Source of the DNA: an uncultured Myxococcales bacterium
GTDB taxonomy: Bacteria > Myxococcota_A > UBA9042 > DTJE01
NCBI GenBank assembly: GCA_903847405.1
Contig: CAINDP010000153.1
Span: 4,121-68,120 of the forward strand
Direction of reading: 5' to 3'
DNA: 64,000 nucleotides
The notes beneath the pieces are model-generated. The model searched no databases. It saw only the letters and a list, made by a program, of their open reading frames with translations, and was not told where the DNA came from. The number at the start of each line of letters is the position of its first letter. Within the stretch, counting starts at the first letter, position 1. The translations under genes and the position numbers were made by a program. This document shows positions 35,199 through 51,099 of the stretch, one piece after another.

Positions 35199-36362
35199 TC
35201 AGCCGGGCGCCCCCGACTGCAACCCCGGCACTTCCCGGTACGCGGGACATTCCTCGCCGCTCACCACCTCCGCTGCCTGCCGCAAGGCGTCCAGCGTCTG
35301 GTACCCGACCAGCCGCGCGACCTCCTTCCGGTCCCGATCCAGGTACACGAAGACCGGGATGCCGCCGATACCGAACGACCGCGCCAGAGGCTTGCCTTCA
35401 GGGCTGGTCACGTCCACCTGGCGGATTTCCAGGGGATGCCCGTCGCACTGGTTCCGAAGGACGTTCACGGCCGGCATCATCTGCCGGCAGATCGGACAGT
35501 TGGGGGAGTAGAACTCGTACAGCACCGGCAGCGGGTCCTGGGCTGCGCCGCATTGGATGTCGACAGCGTGTTCGTCCCCACCGCCGCACGTGGCGCCTTG
35601 TGCCGGGTTCGGCGTGGCCGCGGCAGACAAATCCGGGGGCTCCGCCGCCGACGCCGATACCGGCGCCTCGGGTGGCTGGGCCAGCGCGTAGTCCAGCAGC
35701 CCCAGGCGATCGGTGGCCAGAAGGAACCCGACCACCACCAGCAGCAACCCGGTGGACTTTTCGAATACCGGAATGAACCGCCGCACCTTGCGCAGCGCCG
35801 CCAGGGCCGGCCCCGCCACCAGGGCCACCAGGACCAGCGGCACCGCGAACCCCAGCGAGTACAGGGACAGGTAGCCCATGCCCACCAGGGGATCCGAGGT
35901 CTTCAGGGAGGTGTAGGTCAGGACCGCGCCCAGGACGGATCCGATGCAGGGGCTCCAGGCGAAGGCGAAGAACAGCCCCAGCACGAAGGAATTCAGGTGG
36001 TGGAACCGCGTCTTGAACCGGCCCGCATCCAGGCCGCCGCCACCGTCCAGGCCGGGCAGTTTCAGGTAGCCCATGAACCGCAGGCCCAGCAGCAGCACCA
36101 CGAATCCGCCCAACTGCTGGAACAGCACCTTGTGGTCGACCAGCGCCCGCCCCAGGACGGTTGCCGACAGGCCCAGCAACGAGAACACCAGCGTGAACCC
36201 GGCGGCGAAGGCCAGGCTGGACACGAAGCCCCTGAAGCGGCCGCCCCCCTCCCCGCCCCCGCCCGAAAGGATCGACAGATAGATTGGGATCAGGGGCAGG
36301 ACGCACGGGGAAACGAACGTCAGCAGCCCCGCCACGAACACCGCTGCAGCGGACATCACCAT
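35199..36362 (-). CDS. CcdA/DsbD-family thiol:disulfide interchange membrane protein fused to C-terminal thioredoxin-like domain
   Basis: DsbD-beta-like TM core with conserved Cys pairs (SPCVLPLIP; AWSPCIG) and C-terminal CPICR thioredoxin-fold domain. Confidence 0.8.
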   Translation of the reverse strand: MVMSAAAVFVAGLLTFVSPCVLPLIPIYLSILSGGGGEGGGRFRGFVSSLAFAAGFTLVFSLLGLSATVLGRALVDHKVLFQQLGGFVVLLLGLRFMGYLKLPGLDGGGGLDAGRFKTRFHHLNSFVLGLFFAFAWSPCIGSVLGAVLTYTSLKTSDPLVGMGYLSLYSLGFAVPLVLVALVAGPALAALRKVRRFIPVFEKSTGLLLVVVGFLLATDRLGLLDYALAQPPEAPVSASAAEPPDLSAAATPNPAQGATCGGGDEHAVDIQCGAAQDPLPVLYEFYSPNCPICRQMMPAVNVLRNQCDGHPLEIRQVDVTSPEGKPLARSFGIGGIPVFVYLDRDRKEVARLVGYQTLDALRQAAEVVSGEECPAYREVPGLQSGAPG

Positions 36363-36399
36363 ACCGTCCTCCCTGGGACAGGGCCGATGCACCCGGGCA

Positions 36400-36612: not shown

Positions 36613-36862
36613 CGGGACCTCCAGGTTGTTGGCCACCTGCGCAGGTTGCAACGGGGCAGGCACGACCCGCGCTTCGGGTCGCACCTCGGCAAGCCTCGCC
36701 GGGACCTGACCTCCAAACATTACCTCATGGATATATTTCGCGCAAGCGATATTTAGAAATTCTTTCCACCTTCCTTCATCGGAAGACCGCCTTGACATCC
36801 GCATCGCTCTCCTTACTTTCCATTCACGACATATGCCGCCCGTGGCATCATGGAGGTGCGGA

Positions 36863-37480
36863 ATGGTTCGGACAGTCGCGAACTTCGACGATCTGACGGC
36901 GGCGACCGGCGGACTGAAGGGCCCCTCGGTGGTGGCGTTCTTCGGCGACTTTTCGGAAAAGTCGCGCCGGGCCTGGCCGGTATTCGAGGCCTTCTGCAAG
37001 GCACACCCGGAACTGGATGTGCACCTCGTCGACCTTGACAGGGTCCGGGACGTGCACCGGCGCCTCGGCGTCACGCTGGCCCCGACGGTCCTGCTGATGC
37101 GCGACGGCGCCGTTCATCAGCAACTCGTGGGTGTGCAGACGGACGCGGACTACCAGGCGGCCCTGCTGCCTCACACCAGACCGGCGCCCGGGCCGCAGGC
37201 GGGCGCAACCGCACACCCGTCCCACCGGGTACTGGTGTACACGGGCCCGGGCTGCTCCTGGTGCACCCGCGTGAAGGCCTACCTGCGCCAGCGCAACGTG
37301 TCCTTCACCGAGATCGACGTGTCCCTGGAACCGGCCCAGGCCCAGGCCCTGGTGCGAAAGACCGGCCAGACCGGGGTTCCCCAGTTGGACATCGACGGCC
37401 GCTACGTCGTCGGCTTCGACAAGGCCCGGATCGACGCCCTGCTGGGACTGGCGCCGCAGGCTTCCGCAGGCACCCACTGA
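36863..37480 (+). CDS. thioredoxin-like domain fused to glutaredoxin-like (YruB-type) domain protein
   Basis: N-terminal Trx-like region then glutaredoxin fold with CSWC active site (VLVYTGPGCSWCTRVKAYL...GVPQLDIDGRYVVGFD). Confidence 0.65.
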   Translation: MVRTVANFDDLTAATGGLKGPSVVAFFGDFSEKSRRAWPVFEAFCKAHPELDVHLVDLDRVRDVHRRLGVTLAPTVLLMRDGAVHQQLVGVQTDADYQAALLPHTRPAPGPQAGATAHPSHRVLVYTGPGCSWCTRVKAYLRQRNVSFTEIDVSLEPAQAQALVRKTGQTGVPQLDIDGRYVVGFDKARIDALLGLAPQASAGTH

Positions 37481-39136: not shown

Positions 39137-39379
39137 GTGAACGCGAGGAGCCCCATGAGCGAGTGCGCTGCGATCGAGTTCCTGGTGGAGCAGTTGCCCG
39201 GCGGCAGGTACGTCGCCCGATCCGTCGGCGCCTGCGTGACCACCGAAGCCGACACTCTGGACGAACTCCGCGTCGCCGTCCGGGAAGCCGTGTGCTGCCA
39301 CTTCGACGAAGGCTGCCAGCCTGGCGCGATCCGACTCCGGTTCATCACCGTGGTTCGCGAGGAAGTGGTCCCCGTATGA
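39137..39379 (+). CDS. hicB: HicB-family antitoxin-like protein
   Basis: Small protein with HicB_lk-type N-terminus (AIEFLVEQLPGGRYVARSVGACVTTEADTLDELRVAVREAV); immediately upstream of and overlapping hicA. Confidence 0.5.
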   Translation: MNARSPMSECAAIEFLVEQLPGGRYVARSVGACVTTEADTLDELRVAVREAVCCHFDEGCQPGAIRLRFITVVREEVVPV

Positions 39380-39618
39380 AACATCCGCGGGATCTGTCCG
39401 CCGACGAACTGGTGCACCGGCTGAAACCCCTGGGCTATCGCGTGACCCGACAGGTCGGAAGTCATATGCGACTGACCACCGAGCAAGGCGGGCAGCACCA
39501 CATCACGATCCCGGCCCACAAGCAGGTGACTATCGGCAAGATCAACGCGTTGCTGTGGGATCTGGTGCAGCACTTCGGGATGGACCGGAAGGAACTGATG
39601 GTGCTGCTTTTCGGTTGA
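39376..39618 (+). CDS. hicA: HicA-family mRNA interferase toxin
   Basis: 80 aa; YcfA/HicA pattern LKPLGYRVTRQVGSHMRLTTEQGGQHHITIPAHKQVTIGKIN. Confidence 0.65.
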   Translation: MKHPRDLSADELVHRLKPLGYRVTRQVGSHMRLTTEQGGQHHITIPAHKQVTIGKINALLWDLVQHFGMDRKELMVLLFG

Positions 39619-39669: not shown

Positions 39670-40086
39670 CTACTGGGCCTTCCCCTTGCGGATCTGGGCG
39701 TTGTCGCACACCCCGTCGCCGTCCGCGTCGACGAAGCCGGCGCCGTGCAGCCCCTTGCCCTTGCCTGCCGCCTGGCCGGCGCCCTTGCCCTGGCCCTTGC
39801 CCTTGGACATGCCCTTGCCCTGGCCGCCGGTACCCTTCTTGTCGCAGATCCCGTCGCCATCGGCGTCCACGAAGCCCGCGCCCGAGCCGTCCTTGAGCTG
39901 GACCTGGGCCTGGTCCTTGGCCTGGACCTGGGTCTGGTCCTTGGCCTGATCCTGGGCCTGGGTCGCCGTGCCCGACTGGACGCCCTGCCCCTTCCCCTTC
40001 ACCGCGTCCGCGTCATCCGCGAGCGCCACCGCGGGCAGGCCCGCCATTGCCACCACCAGGAACAGGCTCTTCAAGTTCGTCTTCAT
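39670..40086 (-). CDS. small secreted Lys/Gln/Gly-rich protein with two DxDGDGxCD motifs (paralog of 28515..28919)
   Basis: Signal MMKTNLKSLFLVVAMAGLPAVALA; GFVDADGDGICDKKG and GFVDADGDGVCDN. Confidence 0.6.
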   Translation of the reverse strand: MKTNLKSLFLVVAMAGLPAVALADDADAVKGKGQGVQSGTATQAQDQAKDQTQVQAKDQAQVQLKDGSGAGFVDADGDGICDKKGTGGQGKGMSKGKGQGKGAGQAAGKGKGLHGAGFVDADGDGVCDNAQIRKGKAQ

Positions 40087-40143
40087 CACCGGACCTCCTG
40101 GGTTTCAAGCACCAGCCCCCCACGGGCCGGCAAGGAATGTCCA

Positions 40144-40341: not shown

Positions 40342-41670
40342 CTATCCGCATCCGCCCTTGGTCACGGTCTTCTTCTGCAACCTGACCCGCTTCGTGTAGG
40401 TCGGGGCGGCGCCGTGGCCTGCCTCGTGTACCGGGTCATAGCCAGTACCCGTGGCGTCCGTCGCAAGCGCGCAGGCCGGCACGTATTCCTTTCGGGCCCG
40501 GTCGGGGTGAGCCGACGGGTTCCTGTCACCGACTGCGGCAACGAAGCGCCAGGCCAGGCGCTCCCCTCCCGTTTCCCCGGACAGTTTCTGCGCCACGCAC
40601 GGACTCGGCTGGTAGCGGTCCAGCCAGCCGTCGATCCCGCCCTCGATGACGTACAGGTTCAGGACCCCCTGGGCCCTCAGGTCCTTCCAGGCCTGCGTCG
40701 CAACCGCCTCGCCGTTGGACACGACGAACACGATGGTGTTTTCGCTGGCGCCCAGCAGCGTCCTGACGAACGCCGGGTCCCGCGCATCGCCCGGTTCGAT
40801 CCGTCGCGCACCGGACAGGTGGAACTGGTTGAAGTCCGCCTCCCCGCGCACGTCCAGCACATCCACCTTCAGCGTGAAGTCCTTCTTCAGGTCGACGACC
40901 TCGGCGGGGTCCACGAAGATTTCGCGCTCGCCCAGTTGCCGGTCCCCCTCCGACGCCACCCAGCCCCACCGGTCCTCGACCGTGGGCTGCCCCAGGACGG
41001 CCGTGGCGACCGCCAGGGCGACCAGGGTCCCTCCCCCCGCGATCCGCGCCCGGCTGCGCGGGACCAGCGGGATGTCCTTCCAGGATGTGCCCGCGCCGAA
41101 GTAGGCTTCCGCGATTTCCGCACCCCAGAACATCACCAGCGCCATCAGGACCAGCAGGACCACGACCACGCCGTAAGGGAGGCCCAGCCAGTCCGGCACG
41201 GTGAACCGACCCAGGAACGTGGACTGGAAGAACGGCTCGAAGGACTGCACGGTTTCGCCGAACGCATAGACGCCGCCGAACACGCCCAGGACGAAGAACA
41301 CCCCGTCCAGCTTCAGCGTCGAGGCCGCCACCAGGGAGGTTCCCGGGCAGAACCCGCCGACGATGAACCCGACGCCCATGATCAGCCCGCCGACGATCCC
41401 CGGCACAAGGTACGTCGGGTTGACCCACACGTGGCTGAAGTCCAGCAGGCCCAGCGCCGAGGACAGGAAAATCAGGACGGCCGCGACCACGATGCCGGTG
41501 AACATGACCTTCAGCACGGTCATTTCGCGCAGGTAGAACTGCGCCGCCAATTTGCGGGAGTCGCCGAAGCCCGACACCTCGAGGGCCGCGCCGAAGCCCA
41601 CGCCGATCAGCAGAAAGACGAGGTCGTATGCAAGGGTGCCGGCCAGCGGCGCCAGGTTGAACGGAGCCAT
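40342..41670 (-). CDS. YeeE/YedE family sulfur-compound transporter half fused to C-terminal rhodanese-like domain
   Basis: Internal ATG MAPFNLAPLAG; multi-TM PF04143-like region with GxxxGxCPG-type motif (GGFCPGTSL); C-terminal rhodanese-like fold (active-site Cys position appears to be Ser). Confidence 0.7.
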   Translation of the reverse strand: MAPFNLAPLAGTLAYDLVFLLIGVGFGAALEVSGFGDSRKLAAQFYLREMTVLKVMFTGIVVAAVLIFLSSALGLLDFSHVWVNPTYLVPGIVGGLIMGVGFIVGGFCPGTSLVAASTLKLDGVFFVLGVFGGVYAFGETVQSFEPFFQSTFLGRFTVPDWLGLPYGVVVVLLVLMALVMFWGAEIAEAYFGAGTSWKDIPLVPRSRARIAGGGTLVALAVATAVLGQPTVEDRWGWVASEGDRQLGEREIFVDPAEVVDLKKDFTLKVDVLDVRGEADFNQFHLSGARRIEPGDARDPAFVRTLLGASENTIVFVVSNGEAVATQAWKDLRAQGVLNLYVIEGGIDGWLDRYQPSPCVAQKLSGETGGERLAWRFVAAVGDRNPSAHPDRARKEYVPACALATDATGTGYDPVHEAGHGAAPTYTKRVRLQKKTVTKGGCG

Positions 41671-41681
41671 GTCGCCACCTC

Positions 41682-42203
41682 CTAGTTCCACAACCGGCGC
41701 ACGAAGTACGCCAGGGCATACCCGCCACCGAAGACCGCGAACATGAACGCGAAACTGCCGACCGACAGCACGGCGCCGCCGCTGAGGGCCTGGCCGGACG
41801 TGCAGCCGCGGGCCAGGCGGGCGCCGTACCCCATGACTGCGCCGCCCAGGAGGGCGTAGGCCCAACGCGCACGATTCGTGATGTGGGGCCCGCGACGGGT
41901 TTCCACCCGGAACCGTCGGTTCGCGATCCCGGAAATCATCCCGCCCAGGAAGGTCCCCAGCAGCATGAACACACCCGCGTTGTCCAGCGCGTTGCGGCTG
42001 CCGCCGCCGACCTCGGCGAAGTAGGCCACGCGGTCGACGTGCTCCGGGACGAACAGGTTCAGGATCGCGACCTGCACGTGGCCGATGGCCCCGGAAGCGC
42101 CCAGCCCGTTGCCGGTGATGTAGAAGGACAGGAACAGCACGACGCCCAGCAGGGCGCCGCCCACGTAGGGGTTGACGTAGGGACGCGGGGGCTTGCTAGT
42201 CAT
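41682..42203 (-). CDS. YeeE/YedE family sulfur-compound transporter half
   Basis: 4-TM protein with conserved ARLARGCTSG motif typical of YedE/YeeE (TsuA-like) repeats. Confidence 0.75.
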   Translation of the reverse strand: MTSKPPRPYVNPYVGGALLGVVLFLSFYITGNGLGASGAIGHVQVAILNLFVPEHVDRVAYFAEVGGGSRNALDNAGVFMLLGTFLGGMISGIANRRFRVETRRGPHITNRARWAYALLGGAVMGYGARLARGCTSGQALSGGAVLSVGSFAFMFAVFGGGYALAYFVRRLWN

Positions 42204-44460
42204 GGGACCCTCCCTCGGCGGACGGGACGTCGATGTCCTCCCACCCGTCGATCATCGCGCTGACATTCGAGAACACGGTCCGTCCGGTCGTCGTCAGGTA
42301 CAGGTGCAGCACGAAGAAGGACAGGAACAGCCAGGAACCCAGGTTGTGCAGGGGCGCGACCACGGTCAGCCCGCCGATGGAAGACGCAAAGTCGGGCCAG
42401 CGCGAGGCCCCCCAGATCAGCACGCCGGTGACCACCTGGAAGGGGAACAGCACGTTCAGCAGCCCCAGGTACGTGATCTGCTGCAGCGGGTTCATCTTGC
42501 GGTCGGCGGTCTTCGCGGGGTGCGGCTGGCCCACGAAGATGCCCTGCAGGTAGTACTGGGCCTGCGCCGCCACCCGCCCGGGCAGGTCGTGACGCCCGGG
42601 GACGAACTGCCGGATCGCATCGCTGGCCAGGTGGTAGAACAGCGACAGGAAGGCGTTGACGATCATCACGACGGCAACGATGTTGTGAAGCTTCACCGCC
42701 AGCGGCAGGCCCACCAGCGTCCAGTTGCCGCCGAAATGGACCTCGACCCCCGTGACCATCAGCACCAGGATGCTGGAGGCCATCAGCCAGTGCCAGACGC
42801 GCTCATAGGCGGTGTACAGGTAGGCCTTGCGCGTCGGACGATGGCCATGGGCAAAGCGGCCGCGCGCCCGGAGCCGCAGCCCGCCGTGCACCGCGACCCC
42901 GGCCAGGACGCCAGCGAACGCCAGGAAGCCGAGGCGGTCGGTCCAGGTGCCTTGCGAGTGGCCGAAGACGTGGAAGGACGCTCCCGAATCCCGCTGCAGG
43001 ACCAGGCCATGGCCGTCCGGCGACGCCACGACGCCTCCGAAGGCCAGGCCGCCTCCCTCGGGAACCGTCGGGACGACGCCGCCGGGATAGGGAGCGGAGG
43101 CCAGGGGAATCGCCGCGTTCAGACGGGAATCCTCGGCGTGACAACCGGTGCAGTCCCTCTGCACCGCGGGACCGGACACGACGTCGTGGTTCACGGGCCG
43201 CGGAACGATCGCGGTCCGGATTTGCGGATCCGCGACGCCTCCAGCCGCCAGGCGTGACCGGAGAACCGCGACCTTTGCCGGTGTGTCCAGGCGCACCTCC
43301 GCGACGTCCAGGCGGCCATCGCCGTTGCCATCCAACGCGCGCACCACCTCGTTCGCGTAGGTGTCACCCTCGAACCATGCCGCCCGGACGGCGGCAAACG
43401 GAATCTCGTCACCGGCAGGACCCGACGCCCAGAACCACCGGGTGACCAGGTTGAAGGGTGCGATGCGCATCCCCTCGGCAGGGTCCGTGCGGGCCAAAAG
43501 GAACGGCGCGTACCCCGTGGCGAAGGCCGTGTTCAGCGACTGGTCGTCGGCGCGGTCCAGGCCGCGGTACTCCACGCGCGGACCGCCACCGGGCAGCATC
43601 ACCGTGGCGTCCACCGAGCGCGCCGCCGGGCCCGCGAGGGTCGGCACGTGGCAGGCACGGCAGTCCAGCGTGTCCATGTGGCGTTTCGTGTAGGGCAGGA
43701 ACGCGTGGACCTTCAGGGGGTCGTGGCAGGACCGGCAGGTCGCGGCGACGAGTTCATGGTCCGGCCGACGCAGGAACTGGGACAGGGCAATCTTGCGCGG
43801 ATCGTTCAGCAGGAAGTCCAGCGCCGTGTGCTTCACGTCGGCCTTCGCCGGGTTGTTCCGGGCGAAGTGGCAGTCCGTGCACGCGACCAGGCGTCGCGAA
43901 TGGACGTCCCAAGGATTGGTCCGCGCCGCCTTGTCCTTCAGATTCAGCCACGAATCGCCGACGGCCTGGGGCGACAGGATTTCGCCGGTGTCGCGGGTCA
44001 GGGCGTAGGTGTGCCCACCGGACGCACCCGGGACCGCCGACTCGAAGTCGTCAGGAATCGTCAGGGGCTCCGTCCCGCCGTGGACGATCCCGTGGCAGAA
44101 GGCGCAGTTTTCGTCCCGCGGGGCCCGGATGCGGATCGCCTCCCGGCGCAGCAGGCCCGTTTCGTCGAAGACCGTCGGGTCGGTCGGCAGGCGACTGCCC
44201 TCGAAGTGGCACTCGGCGCACGTCGCCTGCCGCCCGTCCCGGGAGTGCGGGTTGTGGGCGTCGATGTAGGCGGCGTCATGGCAGGCGCCACAGGTCTTTC
44301 CCGACGACGGGGCGCCGCCGGACACCGCGATTCGCTGCCCCGCCTCGTCCAGGATCGGGAACGCCGGGTGCATCGGGTTCGCGGGCCCCTGGGCACGGGC
44401 CTCCGGCGCGAAGATGGTACCGACCACTGCCGCAAGAATGACCGCAGGAATCCGTCTCAT
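42196..44460 (-). CDS. heptaheme c-type cytochrome fused to C-terminal membrane di-heme cytochrome b-like domain
   Basis: Signal MRRIPAVILAAVVGTIFAPEARAQG; CGACH, CAECH, CAFCH, CTDCH, CRSCH, CRACH, CTGCH; C-terminal approx 230 aa with 5-6 TM helices and conserved His (cytochrome b561/NrfH-partner-like). Confidence 0.7.
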   Translation of the reverse strand: MRRIPAVILAAVVGTIFAPEARAQGPANPMHPAFPILDEAGQRIAVSGGAPSSGKTCGACHDAAYIDAHNPHSRDGRQATCAECHFEGSRLPTDPTVFDETGLLRREAIRIRAPRDENCAFCHGIVHGGTEPLTIPDDFESAVPGASGGHTYALTRDTGEILSPQAVGDSWLNLKDKAARTNPWDVHSRRLVACTDCHFARNNPAKADVKHTALDFLLNDPRKIALSQFLRRPDHELVAATCRSCHDPLKVHAFLPYTKRHMDTLDCRACHVPTLAGPAARSVDATVMLPGGGPRVEYRGLDRADDQSLNTAFATGYAPFLLARTDPAEGMRIAPFNLVTRWFWASGPAGDEIPFAAVRAAWFEGDTYANEVVRALDGNGDGRLDVAEVRLDTPAKVAVLRSRLAAGGVADPQIRTAIVPRPVNHDVVSGPAVQRDCTGCHAEDSRLNAAIPLASAPYPGGVVPTVPEGGGLAFGGVVASPDGHGLVLQRDSGASFHVFGHSQGTWTDRLGFLAFAGVLAGVAVHGGLRLRARGRFAHGHRPTRKAYLYTAYERVWHWLMASSILVLMVTGVEVHFGGNWTLVGLPLAVKLHNIVAVVMIVNAFLSLFYHLASDAIRQFVPGRHDLPGRVAAQAQYYLQGIFVGQPHPAKTADRKMNPLQQITYLGLLNVLFPFQVVTGVLIWGASRWPDFASSIGGLTVVAPLHNLGSWLFLSFFVLHLYLTTTGRTVFSNVSAMIDGWEDIDVPSAEGGSHD

Positions 44461-45929
44461 CGGCGACCTCCCGTCGTCAGCGGGTCGCCGTCGTAGCCCA
44501 GGGCCTTCCAGTCCATTCGTGTCGTCCTTTCATCGAGGTTGCCCGAGGCGGCTGCGCCTGTGCGCTCGGGCAGGCCGTGGCAATCGGTGCACTGCAGCGC
44601 GGCTTCCTTCGGCGCGACCATGTGTGACAGCGGCCAGTGCATCGCCGTCTGCGCGAAGCCATACTCGCCGCTGTACTGGATCCCCGAAGCATCCGCGCCC
44701 AGCCGCAACGCCTTCTCCCAGTCGAAGTCGTGCCAGAAGCCGCCCGCACCGCTGGTCACGGGGGGCAACAGGATGTCCCGTTTCCGGTCGTAGGGTTGCA
44801 GGGCCCGGTGGACCTTGAACGGCCAGATTTTCGCCGTGCGATCGTGGATGTTCCCGCGGGGCCGATTGATGGTTGTCGTCGTCGCCGGATCCATCGGGTC
44901 GCCCAGCAGGTATCGGTCCACGGTGCCGTTGAACCAGTCGTACTCGGGCACGATGTCGTGGTCGTACACGAACTCGCCCTTGATCTTCAGGTAGGTGTGC
45001 GGGTCGTCGGGACGGTTCGGGTCGCCGCCCTTGCTCCAGTCCCAGAACGTCTTGGTGGGCAGGCGGCGGGCGTAGGTCGGGACATGGCAGGTGGTGCAGG
45101 CGACGCTGTCAAGGTGCGTGTTGATCCGCGCATCCTGGTGCGGAGGCGCCTTGTGGCAGTCGACGCAGCCGATGCCGCCCTCGTCCGTGACGCTGACCGA
45201 AAACGCGCGGCCACGAATGAGGTGCTTTTCCGTCCGATGGCAGTCGATGCAAAGGAACCCGCTCTGCCCCATGTGGACGTCGTCGTCCCGGGTCGGGTTT
45301 TCCAGGCTGCTGTCCAGATCGCCGTGCTTCACCCCCTGGCCACCGCCGCCGTAACTGTGGCACACCGAGCAGTTTTCCCGTTTCGGGAAGCCCACCGATT
45401 TCGCCACGGCCAGCAGGTCCACACCCTTGGCCGGGAGGCCCTCGTCACCCTTCACGTAGGAACCCGAACGCTCGTGGCAGACCAGGCAGTCGACCGACTC
45501 GGCGCGGTTGAAGTCGAACTTCTCGTCCTTCCAGCCGTACCCCGCGTGGCACTTCGTGCACGAGGCCCAGTTGCCGGTGATGTTGATGCAGAAGTTGTTC
45601 AGCAGGTTCTTCTTGCCGATTCGCATCGTCCCGTCGTGTCCCGGGACCGTGACAGGATCGCCCAGCCACTGCCAGTGCGCCGTCTGCATCAGGTCCGAGG
45701 CGGCCTGGGGGTGGCAGTTCAGGCAGGCCTTCGTGACTTCCTGCGGCGTCCCGAAGGCCTCCGTGAAGAAGGGCGCGTGGTCCAGATGGGTGCGGACCCG
45801 CTTCCGGAAATCCGCCCGCGCGGCCGCGTCGGCCGGGGGATGGACGGGCGACGCGACGACCCAGGCGACGACTCCCGCAATCACCAGTGCCAGGACCACG
45901 ACCCACATCTGCTTGAACCGGCCAGTCAT
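44457..45929 (-). CDS. octaheme c-type cytochrome, tetrathionate reductase (OTR) family-like
   Basis: Signal anchor MTGRFKQMWVVVLALVIAGVVAWVVA; eight CxxCH (CLNCH, CTKCH, CLVCH, CSVCH, CIDCH, CVDCH, CTTCH, CTDCH); size about 490 aa as in Shewanella Otr. Confidence 0.65.
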   Translation of the reverse strand: MTGRFKQMWVVVLALVIAGVVAWVVASPVHPPADAAARADFRKRVRTHLDHAPFFTEAFGTPQEVTKACLNCHPQAASDLMQTAHWQWLGDPVTVPGHDGTMRIGKKNLLNNFCINITGNWASCTKCHAGYGWKDEKFDFNRAESVDCLVCHERSGSYVKGDEGLPAKGVDLLAVAKSVGFPKRENCSVCHSYGGGGQGVKHGDLDSSLENPTRDDDVHMGQSGFLCIDCHRTEKHLIRGRAFSVSVTDEGGIGCVDCHKAPPHQDARINTHLDSVACTTCHVPTYARRLPTKTFWDWSKGGDPNRPDDPHTYLKIKGEFVYDHDIVPEYDWFNGTVDRYLLGDPMDPATTTTINRPRGNIHDRTAKIWPFKVHRALQPYDRKRDILLPPVTSGAGGFWHDFDWEKALRLGADASGIQYSGEYGFAQTAMHWPLSHMVAPKEAALQCTDCHGLPERTGAAASGNLDERTTRMDWKALGYDGDPLTTGGRR

Positions 45930-46255
45930 CACGACGCCTCCTGTATGCGAATCTCGGCGGTGATCGCATCGCCCGACAGGCATTTCAGGACTTCGCCGAG
46001 TCGTTCGAGGTTCAACCTGTACCAGGCGAAGCCGCTGGCCCGCCGCACCTCGACCAGGCCGTTCATCCGCAGAATGGCCAGTTGGCCGGAAACGACGGCC
46101 TGGGGGGTTTTCAGGACCTCGGTCAACTGGCTGACGTTGGCCTCGCCTTCCCGCAGCACGGCCAGCAGTTCCAGCCGTATCGGGTGCGCCACGGCGCGCA
46201 GCAGGGTCGCCATCCGAACCGCCTTCGTCGGGTCCAGGGCCAGGGATCCCGTCAT
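45929..46255 (-). CDS. ArsR/SmtB family transcriptional regulator
   Basis: Winged HTH (LLRAVAHPIRLELLAVLREGEANVSQLTEVLKTPQAVVSGQLAILRMNGLVEV); stop overlaps cytochrome start. Confidence 0.8.
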   Translation of the reverse strand: MTGSLALDPTKAVRMATLLRAVAHPIRLELLAVLREGEANVSQLTEVLKTPQAVVSGQLAILRMNGLVEVRRASGFAWYRLNLERLGEVLKCLSGDAITAEIRIQEAS

Positions 46256-46405: not shown

Positions 46406-46579
46406 CGACTTGCGCAGAGCAGCGTCCGACAGGGGCGCTCGCCAGAGGTCGCACCGATGCCTCCTCAGGTTGCAGTTCTGCGACCTTGATGGGAGTAAAC
46501 GCTGCGTTCCCGGTTGAAGGCTTGCGTTAGTGGGCAGATGCTAATAACTTCCCCTGGGTCAAACGGTGGAGGCTACCCC

Positions 46580-47938
46580 ATGGGCTGCGGTTTTCGAAAC
46601 GATCAAGGCGCGGACGGCATTGACGGAAACGGGCCCGAGGCGTTGGCCAAGCCCGACGACCTGGCCCGCGCTGCGATGCGTCTGATTCCCCATAAGGTGC
46701 TGGTGATGAGCGGGAAAGGGGGCGTCGGCAAGACGACGGTCGCCGTCAACCTCGCGTACGCCCTGGCTGCCGCCGGCCACAAGGTCGGGATCGTGGACGC
46801 GGACATGCACGGTCCCGATGTACCGCTGATGACCGGGATCGAGGGACTGCGGGCCGAGGCCAGCGACGAGGGGTTGATCCCCATCGAGGCTCCCGGCGGG
46901 GTCCGCGTCCTGTCGGTGTCCTCGTTCCTGACCTCCCCCGACGCCCCGGTGATCTGGCGCGGTCCGGCCAAGACCGGCGTCATCGCCCAGTTCCTGGGCC
47001 TGGCCGACTGGGAAGGCACCGAGGTGCTGATCGTGGACTGCCCCCCCGGAACCGGGGACGAACCCCTGTCCGTGGCCCAGATGATCCCGGACGCCGACGG
47101 CGTCGTGATCGTGACCTCCCCGCAAGGCGTGTCGCTGCTGGACAGCCGGAAGTGCGTCGGCTTCGCCCGCCAACTGGACCTGCCTGTGCTGGGCATCGTC
47201 GAAAACTTCTCGGGGTTCGCATGCCCGGGTTGCGGCCGCCGCATCGACCTGTTCAAGCGGGGCGGGGGCCAGCGCGCGGCGGCGGAACTGGGCATCCGCT
47301 TCCTGGGCAGCATTCCCATCACCGAGGCGATGGTCGAGGCAGGCGATTCGGGGCACCCCCTGGTGGCTTCGACCCCTGACGACCCCGCATCCCAGGCCTT
47401 GGCGGCCATCGCCCTGGCGATAACGGCCGACTGGGCGACCTCGGACGCCGTCGCGGCGGACTCCGATGCGGACCGGGCTCTTCCGCCGAAAGCCCTGGGC
47501 ACCCTGCGCCTCGGCGTGACGGCCGAGGACGACGCGGGCCTCGACGCCGTGATTTCCGGCCACTTCGGCCACGCTCCGGTCGTGATGGTGGTCGAGGTCC
47601 AGGACGGGAAGGTCCTGTCGGTGAAGCCGGTGGTCAACCCCGGCGCGACCAACCACCAGCCGGGCCAGATGCCCCGATTCCTGAAGAGCCTGGACGTGGA
47701 CGTGGTGCTGACGGGAACGATGGGCGAGCACGCGAAGTCCATGTTCGACGCCTTCGGGATCAAGGTCGTAGGCGGAGCGGACGGCACGGTGGGCCAGGCC
47801 CTGAACGCCTGGATACGTGGGGATCTGGCTGTGTGGGTCCCCTGCGGAGCCCACGGACACCACGGCGGCGGGTGCGGCGGCCACGGGCATGATCACGCTG
47901 GCGGCGGTTGCGGAGGCCACACCTCCGGACAGGACTGA
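46580..47938 (+). CDS. Mrp/NBP35 family ATPase fused to C-terminal NifX/NifB-type (FeMo-cofactor-binding-like) domain and His/Gly/Cys-rich tail
   Basis: SGKGGVGKTT, CPGCGRR; C-terminal domain GHFGHAPVVMVVEVQDGKV...VDVVLTGTMGEHA; tail CGAHGHHGGGCGGHGHDHAGGGCGGH. Confidence 0.85.
   Translation: MGCGFRNDQGADGIDGNGPEALAKPDDLARAAMRLIPHKVLVMSGKGGVGKTTVAVNLAYALAAAGHKVGIVDADMHGPDVPLMTGIEGLRAEASDEGLIPIEAPGGVRVLSVSSFLTSPDAPVIWRGPAKTGVIAQFLGLADWEGTEVLIVDCPPGTGDEPLSVAQMIPDADGVVIVTSPQGVSLLDSRKCVGFARQLDLPVLGIVENFSGFACPGCGRRIDLFKRGGGQRAAAELGIRFLGSIPITEAMVEAGDSGHPLVASTPDDPASQALAAIALAITADWATSDAVAADSDADRALPPKALGTLRLGVTAEDDAGLDAVISGHFGHAPVVMVVEVQDGKVLSVKPVVNPGATNHQPGQMPRFLKSLDVDVVLTGTMGEHAKSMFDAFGIKVVGGADGTVGQALNAWIRGDLAVWVPCGAHGHHGGGCGGHGHDHAGGGCGGHTSGQD
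46655..47395. repeat. approx 740-bp segment about 90% identical to 34305..35040
   Basis: Direct nucleotide comparison. Confidence 0.8.
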
Positions 47939-47982: not shown

Positions 47983-48012
47983 CTTGACGCGCCATCATGG
48001 ACCATTCATATT
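47983..48012 (+). promoter_or_regulatory. candidate sigma-70-type promoter TTGACG-N17-CATATT upstream of SQR-like gene, embedded in direct repeat CATATTTC(x2)
   Basis: -35/-10-like hexamers with 17-nt spacer about 60 nt before ATG 48077; AT-rich island. Confidence 0.35.
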
Positions 48013-48076
48013 TCGCATGTGGCATATTTCTAGCGCGCCACGTGTCCAACGGTTCCATCGGGCCAAGGGGGGGTTC

Positions 48077-49246
48077 ATGAAAGCGCTGATCCTGGGAGGC
48101 GGCATCGGGGGCATCGAGGCGGCGATCGCGTTCCGCAAGGAGGGTTTCGAGGTCGAACTGGTGTCGGACCGGGAGTACCTTTTCGTCTACCCGATCGCCA
48201 TCTGGATCCCGGTCGGCACGGCGCGATTCGAGGATGTGGCCGTACCGCTGGACGATCTGGCACGCCGGCACGGTTTTTCCTGGACCCTGGACCGCGTCAC
48301 GGCCATCACCCCCGACACGGGAAGCATCACCCTGGAAAAGGCGGGGGAGCGCAGGGACTTCGACATCCTGGTCCTGGCCCTGGGTGCGGGCAAGATGAAG
48401 CACGAGGGGATGCAGAACACGCTGTCGATCTGCGGCGCACCCCAGCAGTCCCTGGCGCTGAAGGCGCGCATCGACGCGTTGATCCTGCAGGGCGGCGGCC
48501 GCATCGCCGTGGGTTTCGGCGGCAACCCGAAGGACCCCAGCGCGGTTCGCGGCGGGCCGGGCTTCGAGTTCGTCTTCAACCTGCACCACGTCCTGAAGAA
48601 GCGTGGTATCCGGGACCGCTTCACCCTGACGTTCTTCGCACCCATGGCCGAACCGGGCGCCCGGATGGGGCCGAAGGCGCTGGGGATGCTGGGGAAGATG
48701 TTCACCCGGTGCGGCATCCAGACACATTTCGGCAGCAAGATCCTAGGGTTCGACCCGGACGGCGTGCGCTTCGAGGATGGCAGCAAGGTCGACAGCGACC
48801 TGACGATGTTCATCGCGGCCGGCGACGGGCACCCCGTGATCAAGGCCTCGACGCTGCCCGTCAACGACGCCGGGTTCGTCCGGACCAACGACTTCCTGGA
48901 GGTGGAGGGCCGGCCGGGCTGGTACGCCGTGGGCGACACGGCTGCCCTGGAGGGCCCCGACTGGAAGGCGAAGCAGGGGCACGTGGCCGAGGTCATGGCA
49001 CGTCAGGCCGCCCACAACGCAGCCGTCACGCACCTGGGCCGAAGCGGCACCCGGCGCGGCTACCAGGCGCACCTCAGCATCCTGTGCGTGATGGACATGG
49101 GCAACGGCGCGGGCTTCGTGCACCGGGACGACCGGAAGGCCCGCCTGTGGTCGCTGCCGTTCGTGGGCCACTGGATGAAGAAGGGCTGGGGCTGGTACTA
49201 CCGGAACAGCAAGATGCGCTATTTCCCCCGACTGCCCGGAATGTGA
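48077..49246 (+). CDS. FAD-dependent pyridine nucleotide-disulfide oxidoreductase, sulfide:quinone oxidoreductase (SQR)/NDH-2-like
   Basis: N-terminal dinucleotide fold MKALILGGGIGGIEAA; second Rossmann; size and architecture of SQR/FCSD flavoproteins. Confidence 0.7.
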   Translation: MKALILGGGIGGIEAAIAFRKEGFEVELVSDREYLFVYPIAIWIPVGTARFEDVAVPLDDLARRHGFSWTLDRVTAITPDTGSITLEKAGERRDFDILVLALGAGKMKHEGMQNTLSICGAPQQSLALKARIDALILQGGGRIAVGFGGNPKDPSAVRGGPGFEFVFNLHHVLKKRGIRDRFTLTFFAPMAEPGARMGPKALGMLGKMFTRCGIQTHFGSKILGFDPDGVRFEDGSKVDSDLTMFIAAGDGHPVIKASTLPVNDAGFVRTNDFLEVEGRPGWYAVGDTAALEGPDWKAKQGHVAEVMARQAAHNAAVTHLGRSGTRRGYQAHLSILCVMDMGNGAGFVHRDDRKARLWSLPFVGHWMKKGWGWYYRNSKMRYFPRLPGM

Positions 49247-49389: not shown

Positions 49390-51099
49390 ATGACCGTGGG
49401 TGGAACGGGGGGCGGTACCGCCGCGAAACTGGCGGCCTGCGGCCTGGTGCTGCTGCTGCTGCCGGTGGGTGGATGCATCCGCGAGCGGTGCTACCGGGAC
49501 CTGGATTGCCCGGCGCCGAAGGTATGCGGGGCTCAGGGAACCTGCGCCTGGCGGTGCGTCACGGCGGAGGATTGCGGATCCGGCTTCGACTGCGTCGCCC
49601 ACGCCTGCGAACCGCTGTCGGTGATCCCGGATTCGGGCCGGGAGGTCGGTGACGACGTCCCGGTGTCCGAACCCGAGTGCCCTGATGACATGGTGCTGGT
49701 ATCGAAGTCCTATTGCCTGGACCGCTACGAGGCGTCGCGAACGGACGCAACGGCGACCGGGCCCGGGGCCGATGGTTCCCGGGCCACGTCCCGGATGGGG
49801 GTGCTGCCCTGGCAGGTGGTGGACAACGCGACGGCCGCGGCGGCCTGCGTTGCGGCGGGCAAACGATTGTGCTCGCCGGCCGAGTGGGAGTACGCCTGCC
49901 ACGGTCCCGACGGGACCGAGTACGCCTATGGCAACGCCTACGCATCGACTGCCTGCAACGGGATCGACGCCTTTGGCGAGGGGGGCTTCCACCTGGCGCC
50001 CACCGGCTCGTTCCCGGGGTGCACGAATGGGTACGGCGCCTTCGACCTCAGCGGCAACCTGTGGGAGCACGTGGGGGAAGGCAGCGACATGACGGTCCGG
50101 GGCGGGGCCTTCAACTGCCGGGACTCGGCAGCATTGCACCGTTGCGGCTACGTGCCCGGCACCTGGACCCCTTCGGCGCGCGGATTCCGGTGCTGTGCTG
50201 CGCCCACCTTCCCGGCGGGCCCGCCCGAGGTCCCCGACGAGCCCCTCCTGCAGGACCTGCCGGTCCCGGTTGACGCCGCCGACATCCCGGACGTGCCGTC
50301 GCCGATCGATGCGGGGCCGGACGGTGACGGCGGAGGCTGCCTGGATCCCGACACGCCCCCGGATGCCCCCCGCGACGTGGACGCCGGGCCGTCCGATCCG
50401 GGCGCCGTCGATCCCGGCCCCACGGACTCCGGCGCGACGGACCCCGGTTCCGTGCCCCGTTGCCCCGCAGACATGGTCCCGGTGTCACCCGCCGGTGTCG
50501 CGGCCTGGTGCCTGGATCGATACGAAGCCAGTCGGGACGACGCGACGGGTTCCTCGACCGGAACCTCCTCCCGCCCGGCCAGCCGTCCCGGGGTCCTCCC
50601 CTGGCAATCCGTCACGCTGGACGCCGCGCGGACGGCCTGCGCGTCGGCGGGCAAGCGCCTGTGCACGCCGGCCGAGTGGATCAGTTCCTGCGCCGGGCCG
50701 GCCGCGACCGCCTACAGCTACGGCAACACGTATGTGGCCGACACCTGCAACGGCATCGATGCCTTCTGCGATTGTGCGGGAGCCTGCGCCGCCGTGGCCG
50801 CCTGCCCCTACCCGCACTGCCGTGTCCAGGCGTCGCCTGCCCTGGACGGGGGCCCCTGCGGGGCGTCCTTCCACGTGGTCCCCACCGGCGCCTTCCCGGC
50901 CTGCACCAACGAATGGGGCGCCTTCGACCTGAACGGGAACGTGTGGGAGATCGTGGAGCACGGGGACGGCGTCGAACACTTCCACGGCGGGGCGTACAAC
51001 TGCTCGGACTCCGAGGCTCTGCACCGCTGCGACTACGACGCCACGTGGGGACCATCCGCAAGGGGATTCCGCTGCTGCGCCGACACGGAGCCGCCGTGA
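49390..51099 (+). CDS. lipoprotein with two tandem formylglycine-generating-enzyme (FGE/SUMF1)-family domains
   Basis: Lipobox LVLLLLPVGGC; repeated FGE-like blocks CLDRYEASR...GVLPWQ...GKRLC(S/T)PAEWE...GNLWEHV/GNVWEIV...GGAFNC/GGAYNC...RGFRCC twice. Confidence 0.75.
   Translation: MTVGGTGGGTAAKLAACGLVLLLLPVGGCIRERCYRDLDCPAPKVCGAQGTCAWRCVTAEDCGSGFDCVAHACEPLSVIPDSGREVGDDVPVSEPECPDDMVLVSKSYCLDRYEASRTDATATGPGADGSRATSRMGVLPWQVVDNATAAAACVAAGKRLCSPAEWEYACHGPDGTEYAYGNAYASTACNGIDAFGEGGFHLAPTGSFPGCTNGYGAFDLSGNLWEHVGEGSDMTVRGGAFNCRDSAALHRCGYVPGTWTPSARGFRCCAAPTFPAGPPEVPDEPLLQDLPVPVDAADIPDVPSPIDAGPDGDGGGCLDPDTPPDAPRDVDAGPSDPGAVDPGPTDSGATDPGSVPRCPADMVPVSPAGVAAWCLDRYEASRDDATGSSTGTSSRPASRPGVLPWQSVTLDAARTACASAGKRLCTPAEWISSCAGPAATAYSYGNTYVADTCNGIDAFCDCAGACAAVAACPYPHCRVQASPALDGGPCGASFHVVPTGAFPACTNEWGAFDLNGNVWEIVEHGDGVEHFHGGAYNCSDSEALHRCDYDATWGPSARGFRCCADTEPP

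Follow-up and report, generated by a model that had tools for sequence, protein, structure and literature searches.

A heptahaem cytochrome c fused to a predicted dihaem membrane cytochrome b and encoded beside an Otr-family cytochrome in an uncultured Myxococcales bacterium

The locus and architecture of the fusion

Five genes arranged head to tail on the minus strand form a cassette in the window analyzed here, a 64,000-nucleotide stretch of a contig (CAINDP010000153.1, positions 4,121 to 68,120) from an uncultured Myxococcales bacterium. In order, they encode an ArsR-family regulator, an octahaem cytochrome c of the octahaem tetrathionate reductase (Otr) family, a cytochrome c joined to a membrane cytochrome b (the subject of this study, hereafter the fusion), a YeeE half-protein, and a second YeeE half-protein that carries a rhodanese-like domain (Table 1; all positions are those of the window unless a locus is named). 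A preliminary description of the sequence had identified the third gene as a single polypeptide combining a periplasmic heptahaem cytochrome c with a membrane cytochrome b-like domain. This was borne out, as an intact open reading frame (ORF) of 754 aa at exactly the coordinates given contained seven CxxCH motifs and a match to PF01292. The protein begins with a signal peptide that ends in A-R-A, and covalent attachment of haem c requires export.

AlphaFold2 (AF2) was used to model the fusion from a 68-sequence alignment of its family, which is also the basis of the conservation counts given below for the family. The model had a per-residue confidence score (pLDDT) of 88.9 and a predicted TM-score (pTM) of 0.85, and it showed five transmembrane (TM) helices where five or six hydrophobic helices had been proposed: residues 506-533 (TM0), 551-576, 585-613, 658-687 and 698-723. 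Lysine and arginine residues are concentrated in two loops, with four in 534-550 (which has no acidic residues) and six in 614-657, and none occur in 577-584 or 688-697. Because these loop charges follow the positive-inside rule and fit the AF2 helices, the modeled topology places the c domain outside, followed by an inward crossing of TM0 and a four-helix bundle with both termini in the cytoplasm, as in FdnI. Stand-alone relatives of the b domain lack the linker helix TM0, whose histidine H525 was present in all 68 fused proteins. H525 is invariant although the four canonical b-haem ligands are already assigned elsewhere (see below), and three further histidines (H575, H610 and H647) were each kept in 63 of the 68 sequences. 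Possible roles for these four residues include a quinone site, contact with a haem propionate or binding of a third cofactor.

Table 1 Features of the fusion gene and of the cassette that contains it
Feature	Position	Strand	Basis
Fused heptahaem cytochrome c / dihaem cytochrome b (predicted), whole gene, 754 aa	42196..44460	-	ORF, Pfam and NCBIfam matches, 91 full-length homologues, AF2 model
Sec signal peptide, residues 1-23, MRRIPAVILAAVVGTIFAPEARA, A-x-A cleavage site	44392..44460	-	Sequence reading; hydrophobic segment 1-21
Periplasmic heptahaem c domain, residues 24-500	42961..44391	-	CxxCH motifs, conserved His, hhalign, Foldseek, profile match to 1sp3
EF-hand-type DxDxDG loop, residues 377-389, DGNGDGRLDVAEV, putative structural Ca2+ site	43294..43332	-	Translation, PS00018
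Linker helix TM0, residues 506-533, with invariant H525	42862..42945	-	AF2 helix, hydropathy peak 510-528
Four-helix cytochrome b domain (predicted dihaem), residues 549-739, PF01292, PhsC/FdnI/HydC type	42244..42816	-	PF01292 match, Foldseek, profiles
Otr-family octahaem cytochrome c, 490 aa	44457..45929	-	TIGR04315, 539 bits (cut-off 375); eight CxxCH; Lys/Cys signature
ArsR/SmtB-family regulator, weakly BigR/TsoR-like	45929..46255	-	Pfam HTH_5; NCBIfam NF033788, 68 bits (cut-off 55)
YeeE/YedE (Sulf_transp) half-protein, 173 aa	41682..42203	-	PF04143, E 3.9e-21
Second YeeE/YedE half with extra TM helix, rhodanese-like domain and GGCG tail, 442 aa	40342..41670	-	PF04143, PF00581; identical to P0255

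The haem c domain and its relation to Otr

The seven CxxCH motifs of the fusion (from CGACH to CTGCH) are located at residues 57, 81, 119, 194, 242, 267 and 437. Together they use all 14 cysteines of the protein, and composition alone would predict 0.011 motifs; seven motifs were likewise found in 63 of the 68 homologues. Seven histidines outside the motifs (H31, H72, H187, H235, H252, H261 and H425) show no or almost no variation. Their number suffices for seven bis-His haems, and all seven c haems are probably ligated in this manner.

Profile comparison by hhalign related the c-domain family to the Otr family of the cassettes with a probability of 98-99.5% (E 4e-14 in local and 2.6e-21 in global mode), and the best Protein Data Bank match of the c domain, both by Foldseek and by profile (A1 profile, E 6.4e-8), was the Otr of Shewanella (1sp3). 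The best NCBIfam match was the MmcA model (TIGR04314; E 3e-11, 42.7 bits versus a cut-off of 250), and the Otr model TIGR04315 gave E 1.5e-6 (27 bits versus a cut-off of 375). Consecutive CxxCH motifs are spaced 24-38-75-48-25-170 in the fusion and 55-24-39-40-28-23-169 in Otr. As this spacing and the local hhalign alignment agree, haems 1-7 of the fusion were assigned to Otr haems 2-8, with the first haem of Otr lost. The pairing of fusion haem 1 with Otr haem 1, returned by global hhalign, was rejected because the spacing (24/38 ... 25/170 versus 24/39 ... 23/169) fits haems 2-8.

The active-site Lys ligand and Cys of Otr have been described (bioRxiv 10.1101/2023.04.20.537704) and form part of a G-K-x-N-x-x-N-N-F-C signature that was invariant in 53/53 cassette Otrs. 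No counterpart of this signature was found in the fusion: all of its cysteines belong to CxxCH motifs, and a conserved lysine is lacking ahead of haem 1. With only seven motifs, neither a free cysteine nor a conserved lysine, and a score below the cut-off, the c domain was not accepted as a member of the Otr family (TIGR04315) and is homologous to it only. Membership in the MmcA family (TIGR04314) was rejected as well, given 42.7 versus 250 bits, the loss of a different Otr haem and no rnf genes nearby. Taken together, we read the c domain as a putative electron wire made by pruning a copy of Otr.

An EF-hand-like loop, noted in the preliminary description, was recovered as a match to the PROSITE EF-hand loop PS00018 (DGNGDGRLDVAEV), and the same pattern was found in 61/68 family members. 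Positions 1, 3, 5, 6, 8 and 12 of the loop were conserved in 64-68 of the 68 sequences, and in the AF2 model it follows a helix (370-376) and precedes a short one. There was no Pfam EF-hand match, the match to calbindin was weak (E 0.52), and the loop is absent from Otr at the place aligned by global hhalign. The loop is a likely but putative structural Ca2+ site.

The membrane domain as a predicted dihaem cytochrome b

Residues 549-739 matched PF01292 (prokaryotic cytochrome b561 / Ni_hydr_CYTB) with E 4.8e-23 and 82.3 bits (cut-off 30.1), covering profile positions 2-179 of 179. The domain had been called b561/NarI-like. A NarI-type domain was rejected, as there was no match to PF02665 and Foldseek gave only E 0.29 and a TM-score of 0.34 for NarI (1y5i_C). 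Four histidines that were expected to be conserved as b-haem ligands (H557, H592, H705 and H719) were invariant in 68/68 sequences, and the refuting condition set in the preliminary description, a C-terminal domain devoid of such conserved ligands, therefore does not apply. One of them lies in TM1, one in TM2, and two are spaced 14 residues apart in TM4, like H155 and H169 of FdnI. In a profile built from the b domain and its stand-alone relatives (A3), which matched Escherichia coli HyaC (E 7.6e-11) and FdnI (E 2.9e-6), H557, H705 and H719 aligned with FdnI H18, H155 and H169; all four aligned with histidines of HyaC, and H592 fell within five residues of FdnI H57. An invariant asparagine, N657 (in KMNPLQQ), aligned with FdnI N110 (in KYNAGQK). 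In the structure of FdnI with the inhibitor HQNO (2-heptyl-4-hydroxyquinoline N-oxide), N110 and H169 reportedly line the quinone site beside the cytoplasm-side haem.

Structural comparison gave a similar picture, with FdnI (1kqf_C) as the first Foldseek match of the b domain (E 1.4e-4, TM-score 0.66, rmsd 3.7 Å), followed by HyaC; 4gd3 and 6g94 were found at TM-scores of 0.60-0.64. A single-protein search against solved structures returned nothing useful, and profiles were required for matches. The best named model was PhsC (NF011582), with E 3.9e-34 and 118-122 bits versus a cut-off of 204. Orthology with PhsC was rejected on this score and on the lack of PhsA/B genes in the cassette. Overall, sequence conservation identifies the domain as a genuine cytochrome b of the FdnI/HydC/PhsC type, with two b haems predicted.

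Homologues and distribution

A database search returned 91 full-length homologues (38-100% identity, 86-100% coverage, 650-930 aa) of similar length and the same domain order, which shows that the ORF is not split. A protein identical to the fusion was also present on other, independent metagenome contigs, and an exhaustive search with the b domain showed that about 85 of the nearest 150 cluster representatives are seven-CxxCH fusions. A frameshift or assembly error joining separate cytochrome c and cytochrome b genes was therefore rejected as next to impossible. The high GC content of the DNA does yield many long spurious ORFs in other frames, and nothing else speaks for such an artefact; an identical protein on independent contigs, the retention of length and domain order in homologues down to 38% identity, the abundance of the same fusion among relatives of the b domain, and an AF2 model with one continuous chain whose domains are joined by TM0 all argue against it.

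When one genome per species was scanned, at least 573 stretches encoding a relative of the fusion were recovered, and the best 80 of these were used to describe loci and host taxa. Among the best 80, hosts belonged to Myxococcota (including Anaeromyxobacter), Eisenbacteria, Chloroflexota (Anaerolineae), Spirochaetes, Xanthomonadales/Lysobacterales, Bdellovibrionales, Oligoflexales and Syntrophobacteraceae. The named cluster members included no cultured host. Orthologues from Chloroflexota are generally 100-170 residues longer, and a few have a CxxCH spacing of 127-71-66-65-25-168. Family members are labeled in databases as "cytochrome b/b6 domain-containing protein" or, in entries from JGI, "thiosulfate reductase cytochrome b subunit". 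The latter is a misleading over-annotation, because the PhsC score is below the cut-off and the cassette has no PhsA/B.

Gene partnership with Otr

The genes of the cassette are closely packed. The stop codon of otr and the start codon of the fusion overlap as ATGA, with a GGGAGG ribosome-binding site upstream; the arsR stop codon overlaps the otr start, and the fusion stop codon overlaps the start of the YeeE half-protein by 8 nt. From these overlaps, the fusion gene is predicted to be translationally coupled within the cassette. A promoter and terminator scan of the locus was uninformative in this DNA of 68% GC.

This arrangement recurred among the 80 related loci. Otr is encoded directly upstream on the same strand in 76/77 loci with enough flanking sequence, which come from Myxococcota, Eisenbacteria, Chloroflexota, Spirochaetes, Gammaproteobacteria and others. 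The YeeE half-protein is encoded directly downstream in 73/74 loci, with the YeeE-rhodanese gene next in 60/61; an ArsR gene directly upstream of otr was found in 13/75 loci only. In some genomes, the partners are fused. In a 716-aa protein found on three contigs (P0252; loci L084/L085, 6001-8151), a full-scoring Otr is joined straight to the PhsC-like type of b domain seen in the fusion, and two longer proteins (P0138, 1180 aa with 15 CxxCH; P0189, 1094 aa) contain Otr, the c domain and the b domain in one ORF. The P0189 gene (locus L086, 6001-9285) lies in the same cassette, followed by genes for an SQR-like flavoprotein, DsrC and DsrE and preceded by a CoADR-rhodanese gene. The gene partnership with Otr is obligatory for this family, and since such Rosetta-stone fusions, synteny and overlapping codons coincide, a physical complex of Otr and the fusion appears to be the most economical reading. 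A literature search found no description of the fusion family or of the cassette of Otr, c-b fusion and YeeE genes, and both appear to be undescribed.

Sulfur-related neighbours and a possible carrier arm

The 442-aa YeeE/rhodanese protein ends in KKTVTKGGCG, with the GGCG end of its gene at 40342-40356 (minus strand). A (G/S)GC(G/S)-type tail following K-V-K-L-x-x-K was found in 62/64 complete orthologues across phyla (L002-L083), with G439, G440 and C441 invariant. SoxY carries sulfur intermediates on a C-terminal GGCGG arm, on which it presents substrates for oxidation (PMC6067878), and copies of soxY adjoin otr in lucinid symbionts (PMC11237559). The GGCG tail resembles this carrier arm in sequence, and the likeness is confined to the terminal motif, as no SoxY domain was found in the tail region. 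The rhodanese fold of the protein was confirmed. A serine replaces the catalytic cysteine family-wide (residues ~310-320; FVVSNGE here, consensus FLVSNGE), and the domain is probably not a sulfurtransferase. The extra TM helix (207-226) lies between RSRAR on its N-terminal side and an acidic stretch on the other, a charge pattern that suggests that the rhodanese-like domain and the GGCG tail face the periplasm.

The likeness of the tail to SoxY, together with the fact that a role for Otr was never established, allows a further reading, which we put forward only tentatively and hold to be rather doubtful: the four conserved genes may form one machine, in which Otr acts not on a free ion but on a sulfur (or selenium) species bound covalently to the GGCG cysteine. 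Otr would reduce or oxidize the bound species, and the c7-b2 fusion would couple this reaction, across the membrane, to the quinone pool. If true, the long-missing physiological role of Otr would be a Sox-like, carrier-based pathway wired to menaquinone.

Divergent from the cassette lies a gene for an MrpORP-like Fe-S carrier ATPase with a NifX-like domain (46514-47938, plus strand; 388 bits, below the cut-off of 450), followed by one for an SQR-like pyridine-nucleotide-disulfide oxidoreductase (47984-49246, plus strand); a similar flavoprotein follows the cassette in L086. On the other side, a CcdA/DsbD-like membrane protein fused to thioredoxin (35199-36392, minus strand) showed a weak match to the "TsoB" selenoprotein model and is encoded beside a thioredoxin-glutaredoxin fusion (36833-37480, plus strand). 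The cassette ArsR regulator gave a weak "TsoR" match, and the "Tso" system of NCBIfam is possibly related to the module described here. Further neighbours are a small secreted Gly/Lys-rich protein of 139 aa with two GFVDADGDG(I/V)CD repeats and no Pfam or NCBIfam family (39670-40089, minus strand; best E ~1), a secreted protein with two FGE-sulfatase (SUMF1-like) domains and Cys-rich linkers (49390-51099, plus strand), and two small overlapping ORFs that look, by sequence reading only, like a HicB/HicA-type toxin-antitoxin pair (39137-39618, plus strand).

Proposed function and alternative readings

We favor, with moderate confidence, a reading in which the fusion is a membrane-anchored electron module that joins the menaquinone pool to the upstream Otr, with quinol oxidation feeding Otr. 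Once exported by Sec and loaded with haem, the N-terminal domain would form a periplasmic seven-haem wire on a pruned Otr scaffold. TM0 would then bring the chain back to the cytoplasm, where the four-helix bundle of the FdnI/HydC/PhsC type begins. This bundle is predicted to hold two stacked b haems, ligated by H592/H705 toward the periplasm and by H557/H719 toward the cytoplasm. As N110 and H169 of FdnI are kept as N657 and H719, we would place the quinol site next to the haem nearer the cytoplasm. Electrons would pass from quinol through the two b haems across the membrane to the seven c haems and on to Otr, which would reduce a periplasmic sulfur compound. A quinol site in this position would allow the membrane potential to assist the outward transfer of electrons, which would suit a low-potential acceptor; such assistance was reportedly proposed for PhsC by Stoffels et al. 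in 2012.

Quinol oxidation is favored as the direction because PhsC is the nearest named b family, and because CbcL, a protein of the same build, is genetically established as a quinol oxidase in Geobacter (PMC9129911, PMC6295460). It is also favored because Otr is reported to act mainly as a reductase in vitro, notably on nitrite and hydroxylamine (PMC12949373), and because otr transcripts rise with tetrathionate in sediments (36-fold after its addition to microcosms; PMC8528874). The link between quinone pool and octahaem enzyme suggested in the preliminary description is thus upheld in its tie to Otr, by synteny, the ATGA overlap and natural fusions, while for its direction we only infer quinol oxidation.

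Several points weigh against this reading. The same b-domain superfamily runs both ways, as FdnI and HydC reduce quinone and PhsC oxidizes quinol, and sequence leaves the direction unfixed; the score to the PhsC model is itself below the cut-off. The first haem of the fusion sits at the position of the catalytic haem 2 of Otr, making catalysis by the fusion itself possible. For the tetrathionate couple, at +198 mV (cited in PMC8528874), menaquinol would need no help from the membrane potential. The single locus of the 77 without Otr or YeeE neighbours (L049, 6992-9661, 889 aa, from an Anaerolineaceae metagenome-assembled genome, MAG) shows that a copy can stand alone. All of the best 80 of at least 573 genome matches are from MAGs, metagenomes or MAGs are the source of all homologues examined, and the haem-ligand geometry is drawn solely from alignment.

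Electrons might instead flow in reverse, with Otr oxidizing reduced sulfur, either free or GGCG-bound, and the fusion reducing menaquinone at the cytoplasmic side in an energy-conserving redox loop like that of formate dehydrogenase-N (FdnI). We regard this as unlikely but as the main rival of the favored reading. The b domain aligns with the quinone reductase FdnI, including N110 and H169, and MtoC, of the same architecture, is assigned to Fe(II) oxidizers and was proposed to be a quinone reductase (PMC6295460). The SoxY-like GGCG arm of the cassette also fits oxidation, for which SoxY presents its substrates (PMC6067878), as do the SQR-like flavoprotein, DsrC and DsrE genes of L086 and the SQR-like gene beside the cassette in the window. 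Conversely, the thiosulfate/tetrathionate couple (+198 mV) cannot reduce menaquinone, and reverse flow is difficult to reconcile with the mainly reductive activities of Otr in vitro (PMC12949373), the transcript response to tetrathionate (PMC8528874) and the quinol-oxidizing role of PhsC, the closest named b family.

Two other readings would uncouple the fusion from Otr. The fusion could itself be an enzyme, a quinol-linked reductase that binds substrate at haem 1 and works beside Otr instead of feeding it, as its haem order keeps the catalytic-haem position (by spacing and local hhalign) and its profile matches 1sp3 across the region of the catalytic haem. This seems improbable, since the Lys/Cys signature of the cassette Otrs has no counterpart in the fusion, there is no cysteine beyond CxxCH or conserved lysine before haem 1, and invariant H31 is available as a sixth ligand among seven conserved non-motif histidines for seven haems. 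Still less probable, in our view, is a general CbcL-like outlet from quinol to extracellular or assorted periplasmic acceptors, beside which Otr would lie incidentally. The fusion shares its architecture with CbcL (PMC9129911), and the copy in L049 is an orphan without Otr; yet Otr is adjacent in 76/77 loci from several phyla with overlapping codons, natural fusions of Otr and the b domain occur, and a look through the cassette showed neither porin-cytochrome nor Mtr genes.

Comparison with known systems and significance

The physiological function of the Otr family was never established, and deletion of Otr in Shewanella gave no tetrathionate phenotype (PMC12949373); its electron donor was likewise never established. 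On the reading favored here, hundreds of uncultured Myxococcota, Chloroflexota, Eisenbacteria and other genomes would provide Otr with its own dedicated quinone-pool module, accompanied by a pair of sulfur-transporter-like proteins with a carrier-type cysteine arm at its end, which defines a testable complex and a sulfur-trafficking context. In outline, the fusion resembles NrfH, CymA and NapC, membrane quinol dehydrogenases that feed periplasmic multihaem reductases; in Shewanella, CymA is presumed to supply Otr with electrons (PMC12949373). However, NrfH and CymA lack b haems and have one N-terminal helix and four c haems, at one of which the quinol site lies, and the NrfH-type model TIGR03153 gave a weak partial match to the fusion of 29-32 bits versus a cut-off of 134.

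The c domain is homologous to Otr (1sp3), with scores far below the cut-offs of both the Otr and the MmcA family models. It also has a parallel in MmcA of Methanosarcina, another seven-haem, non-catalytic-looking offshoot of the Otr family (bioRxiv 10.1101/2023.04.20.537704). MmcA differs in that it is reported to be without the second haem motif of Otr, whereas the fusion c domain lost the first and kept the second, and in being a stand-alone archaeal protein encoded with Rnf, whereas the c domain is bacterial and joined to a cytochrome b. If the wire is indeed a pruned copy of the enzyme that it serves, it would illustrate clearly how multihaem cytochromes evolve by pruning and fusion.

The b domain shares with PhsC, FdnI and HydC/HyaC a four-helix fold, four His ligands in the same helices and a conserved asparagine in the TM2-TM3 loop. 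Those proteins are separate subunits of molybdo-enzyme or hydrogenase complexes that dock an Fe-S subunit, whereas in the fusion the b domain follows the extra TM0 with invariant H525 and is linked covalently to a haem c wire. Because its scores are below the equivalog cut-offs, orthology of the fusion with any of these proteins was rejected. The same type of b domain also occurs in other c-b fusions, such as a 553-aa seven-haem protein of Desulfobaculum bizertense that is named PhsC by NCBI.

Multihaem c modules had been described in the preliminary account as normally paired with a separate membrane subunit, a generalization that does not hold, as CbcL, MtoC and MtrH carry fused c and b domains (PMC6295460, PMC9129911). 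The c-b fusion architecture is therefore already known, and the family described here is probably separate from these proteins. Homologues of CbcL/MtoC/MtrH with 3-23 CxxCH motifs are reported from 15 phyla (PMC6295460, PMC9129911), and CbcL homologues are reported at 28.6-100% identity. Like the fusion, CbcL of Geobacter sulfurreducens combines an N-terminal periplasmic multihaem c domain with a C-terminal HydC/FdnI-like dihaem b domain in one polypeptide and is an inner-membrane quinol/quinone oxidoreductase (PMC9129911, PMC6295460), as is proposed for the fusion. In CbcL, however, nine haems are held in a poorly structured domain of ~29 kDa that is followed by six predicted TM helices, whereas the fusion has seven haems in an Otr-like domain of ~480 residues, an EF-hand loop and five TM helices. 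CbcL functions in extracellular electron transfer, and the fusion family is tied to Otr. Short CbcL-like fragments, 56-94% identical to an imperfect reading of published CbcL sequence and used as approximate proxies for CbcL, scored 15.7 bits with PF01292, below the threshold, and hhalign gave them a probability of only 0.5% (E 0.11) of being related to the fusion b domain. No CbcL-like protein was found among the nearest 150 b-domain representatives. As an Otr-type wire and a PhsC-type b domain differ in origin from the domains of CbcL, the fusion probably arose independently, and it would represent a second, apparently independent case of the CbcL-type design in which a multihaem cytochrome c is fused to a dihaem cytochrome b.

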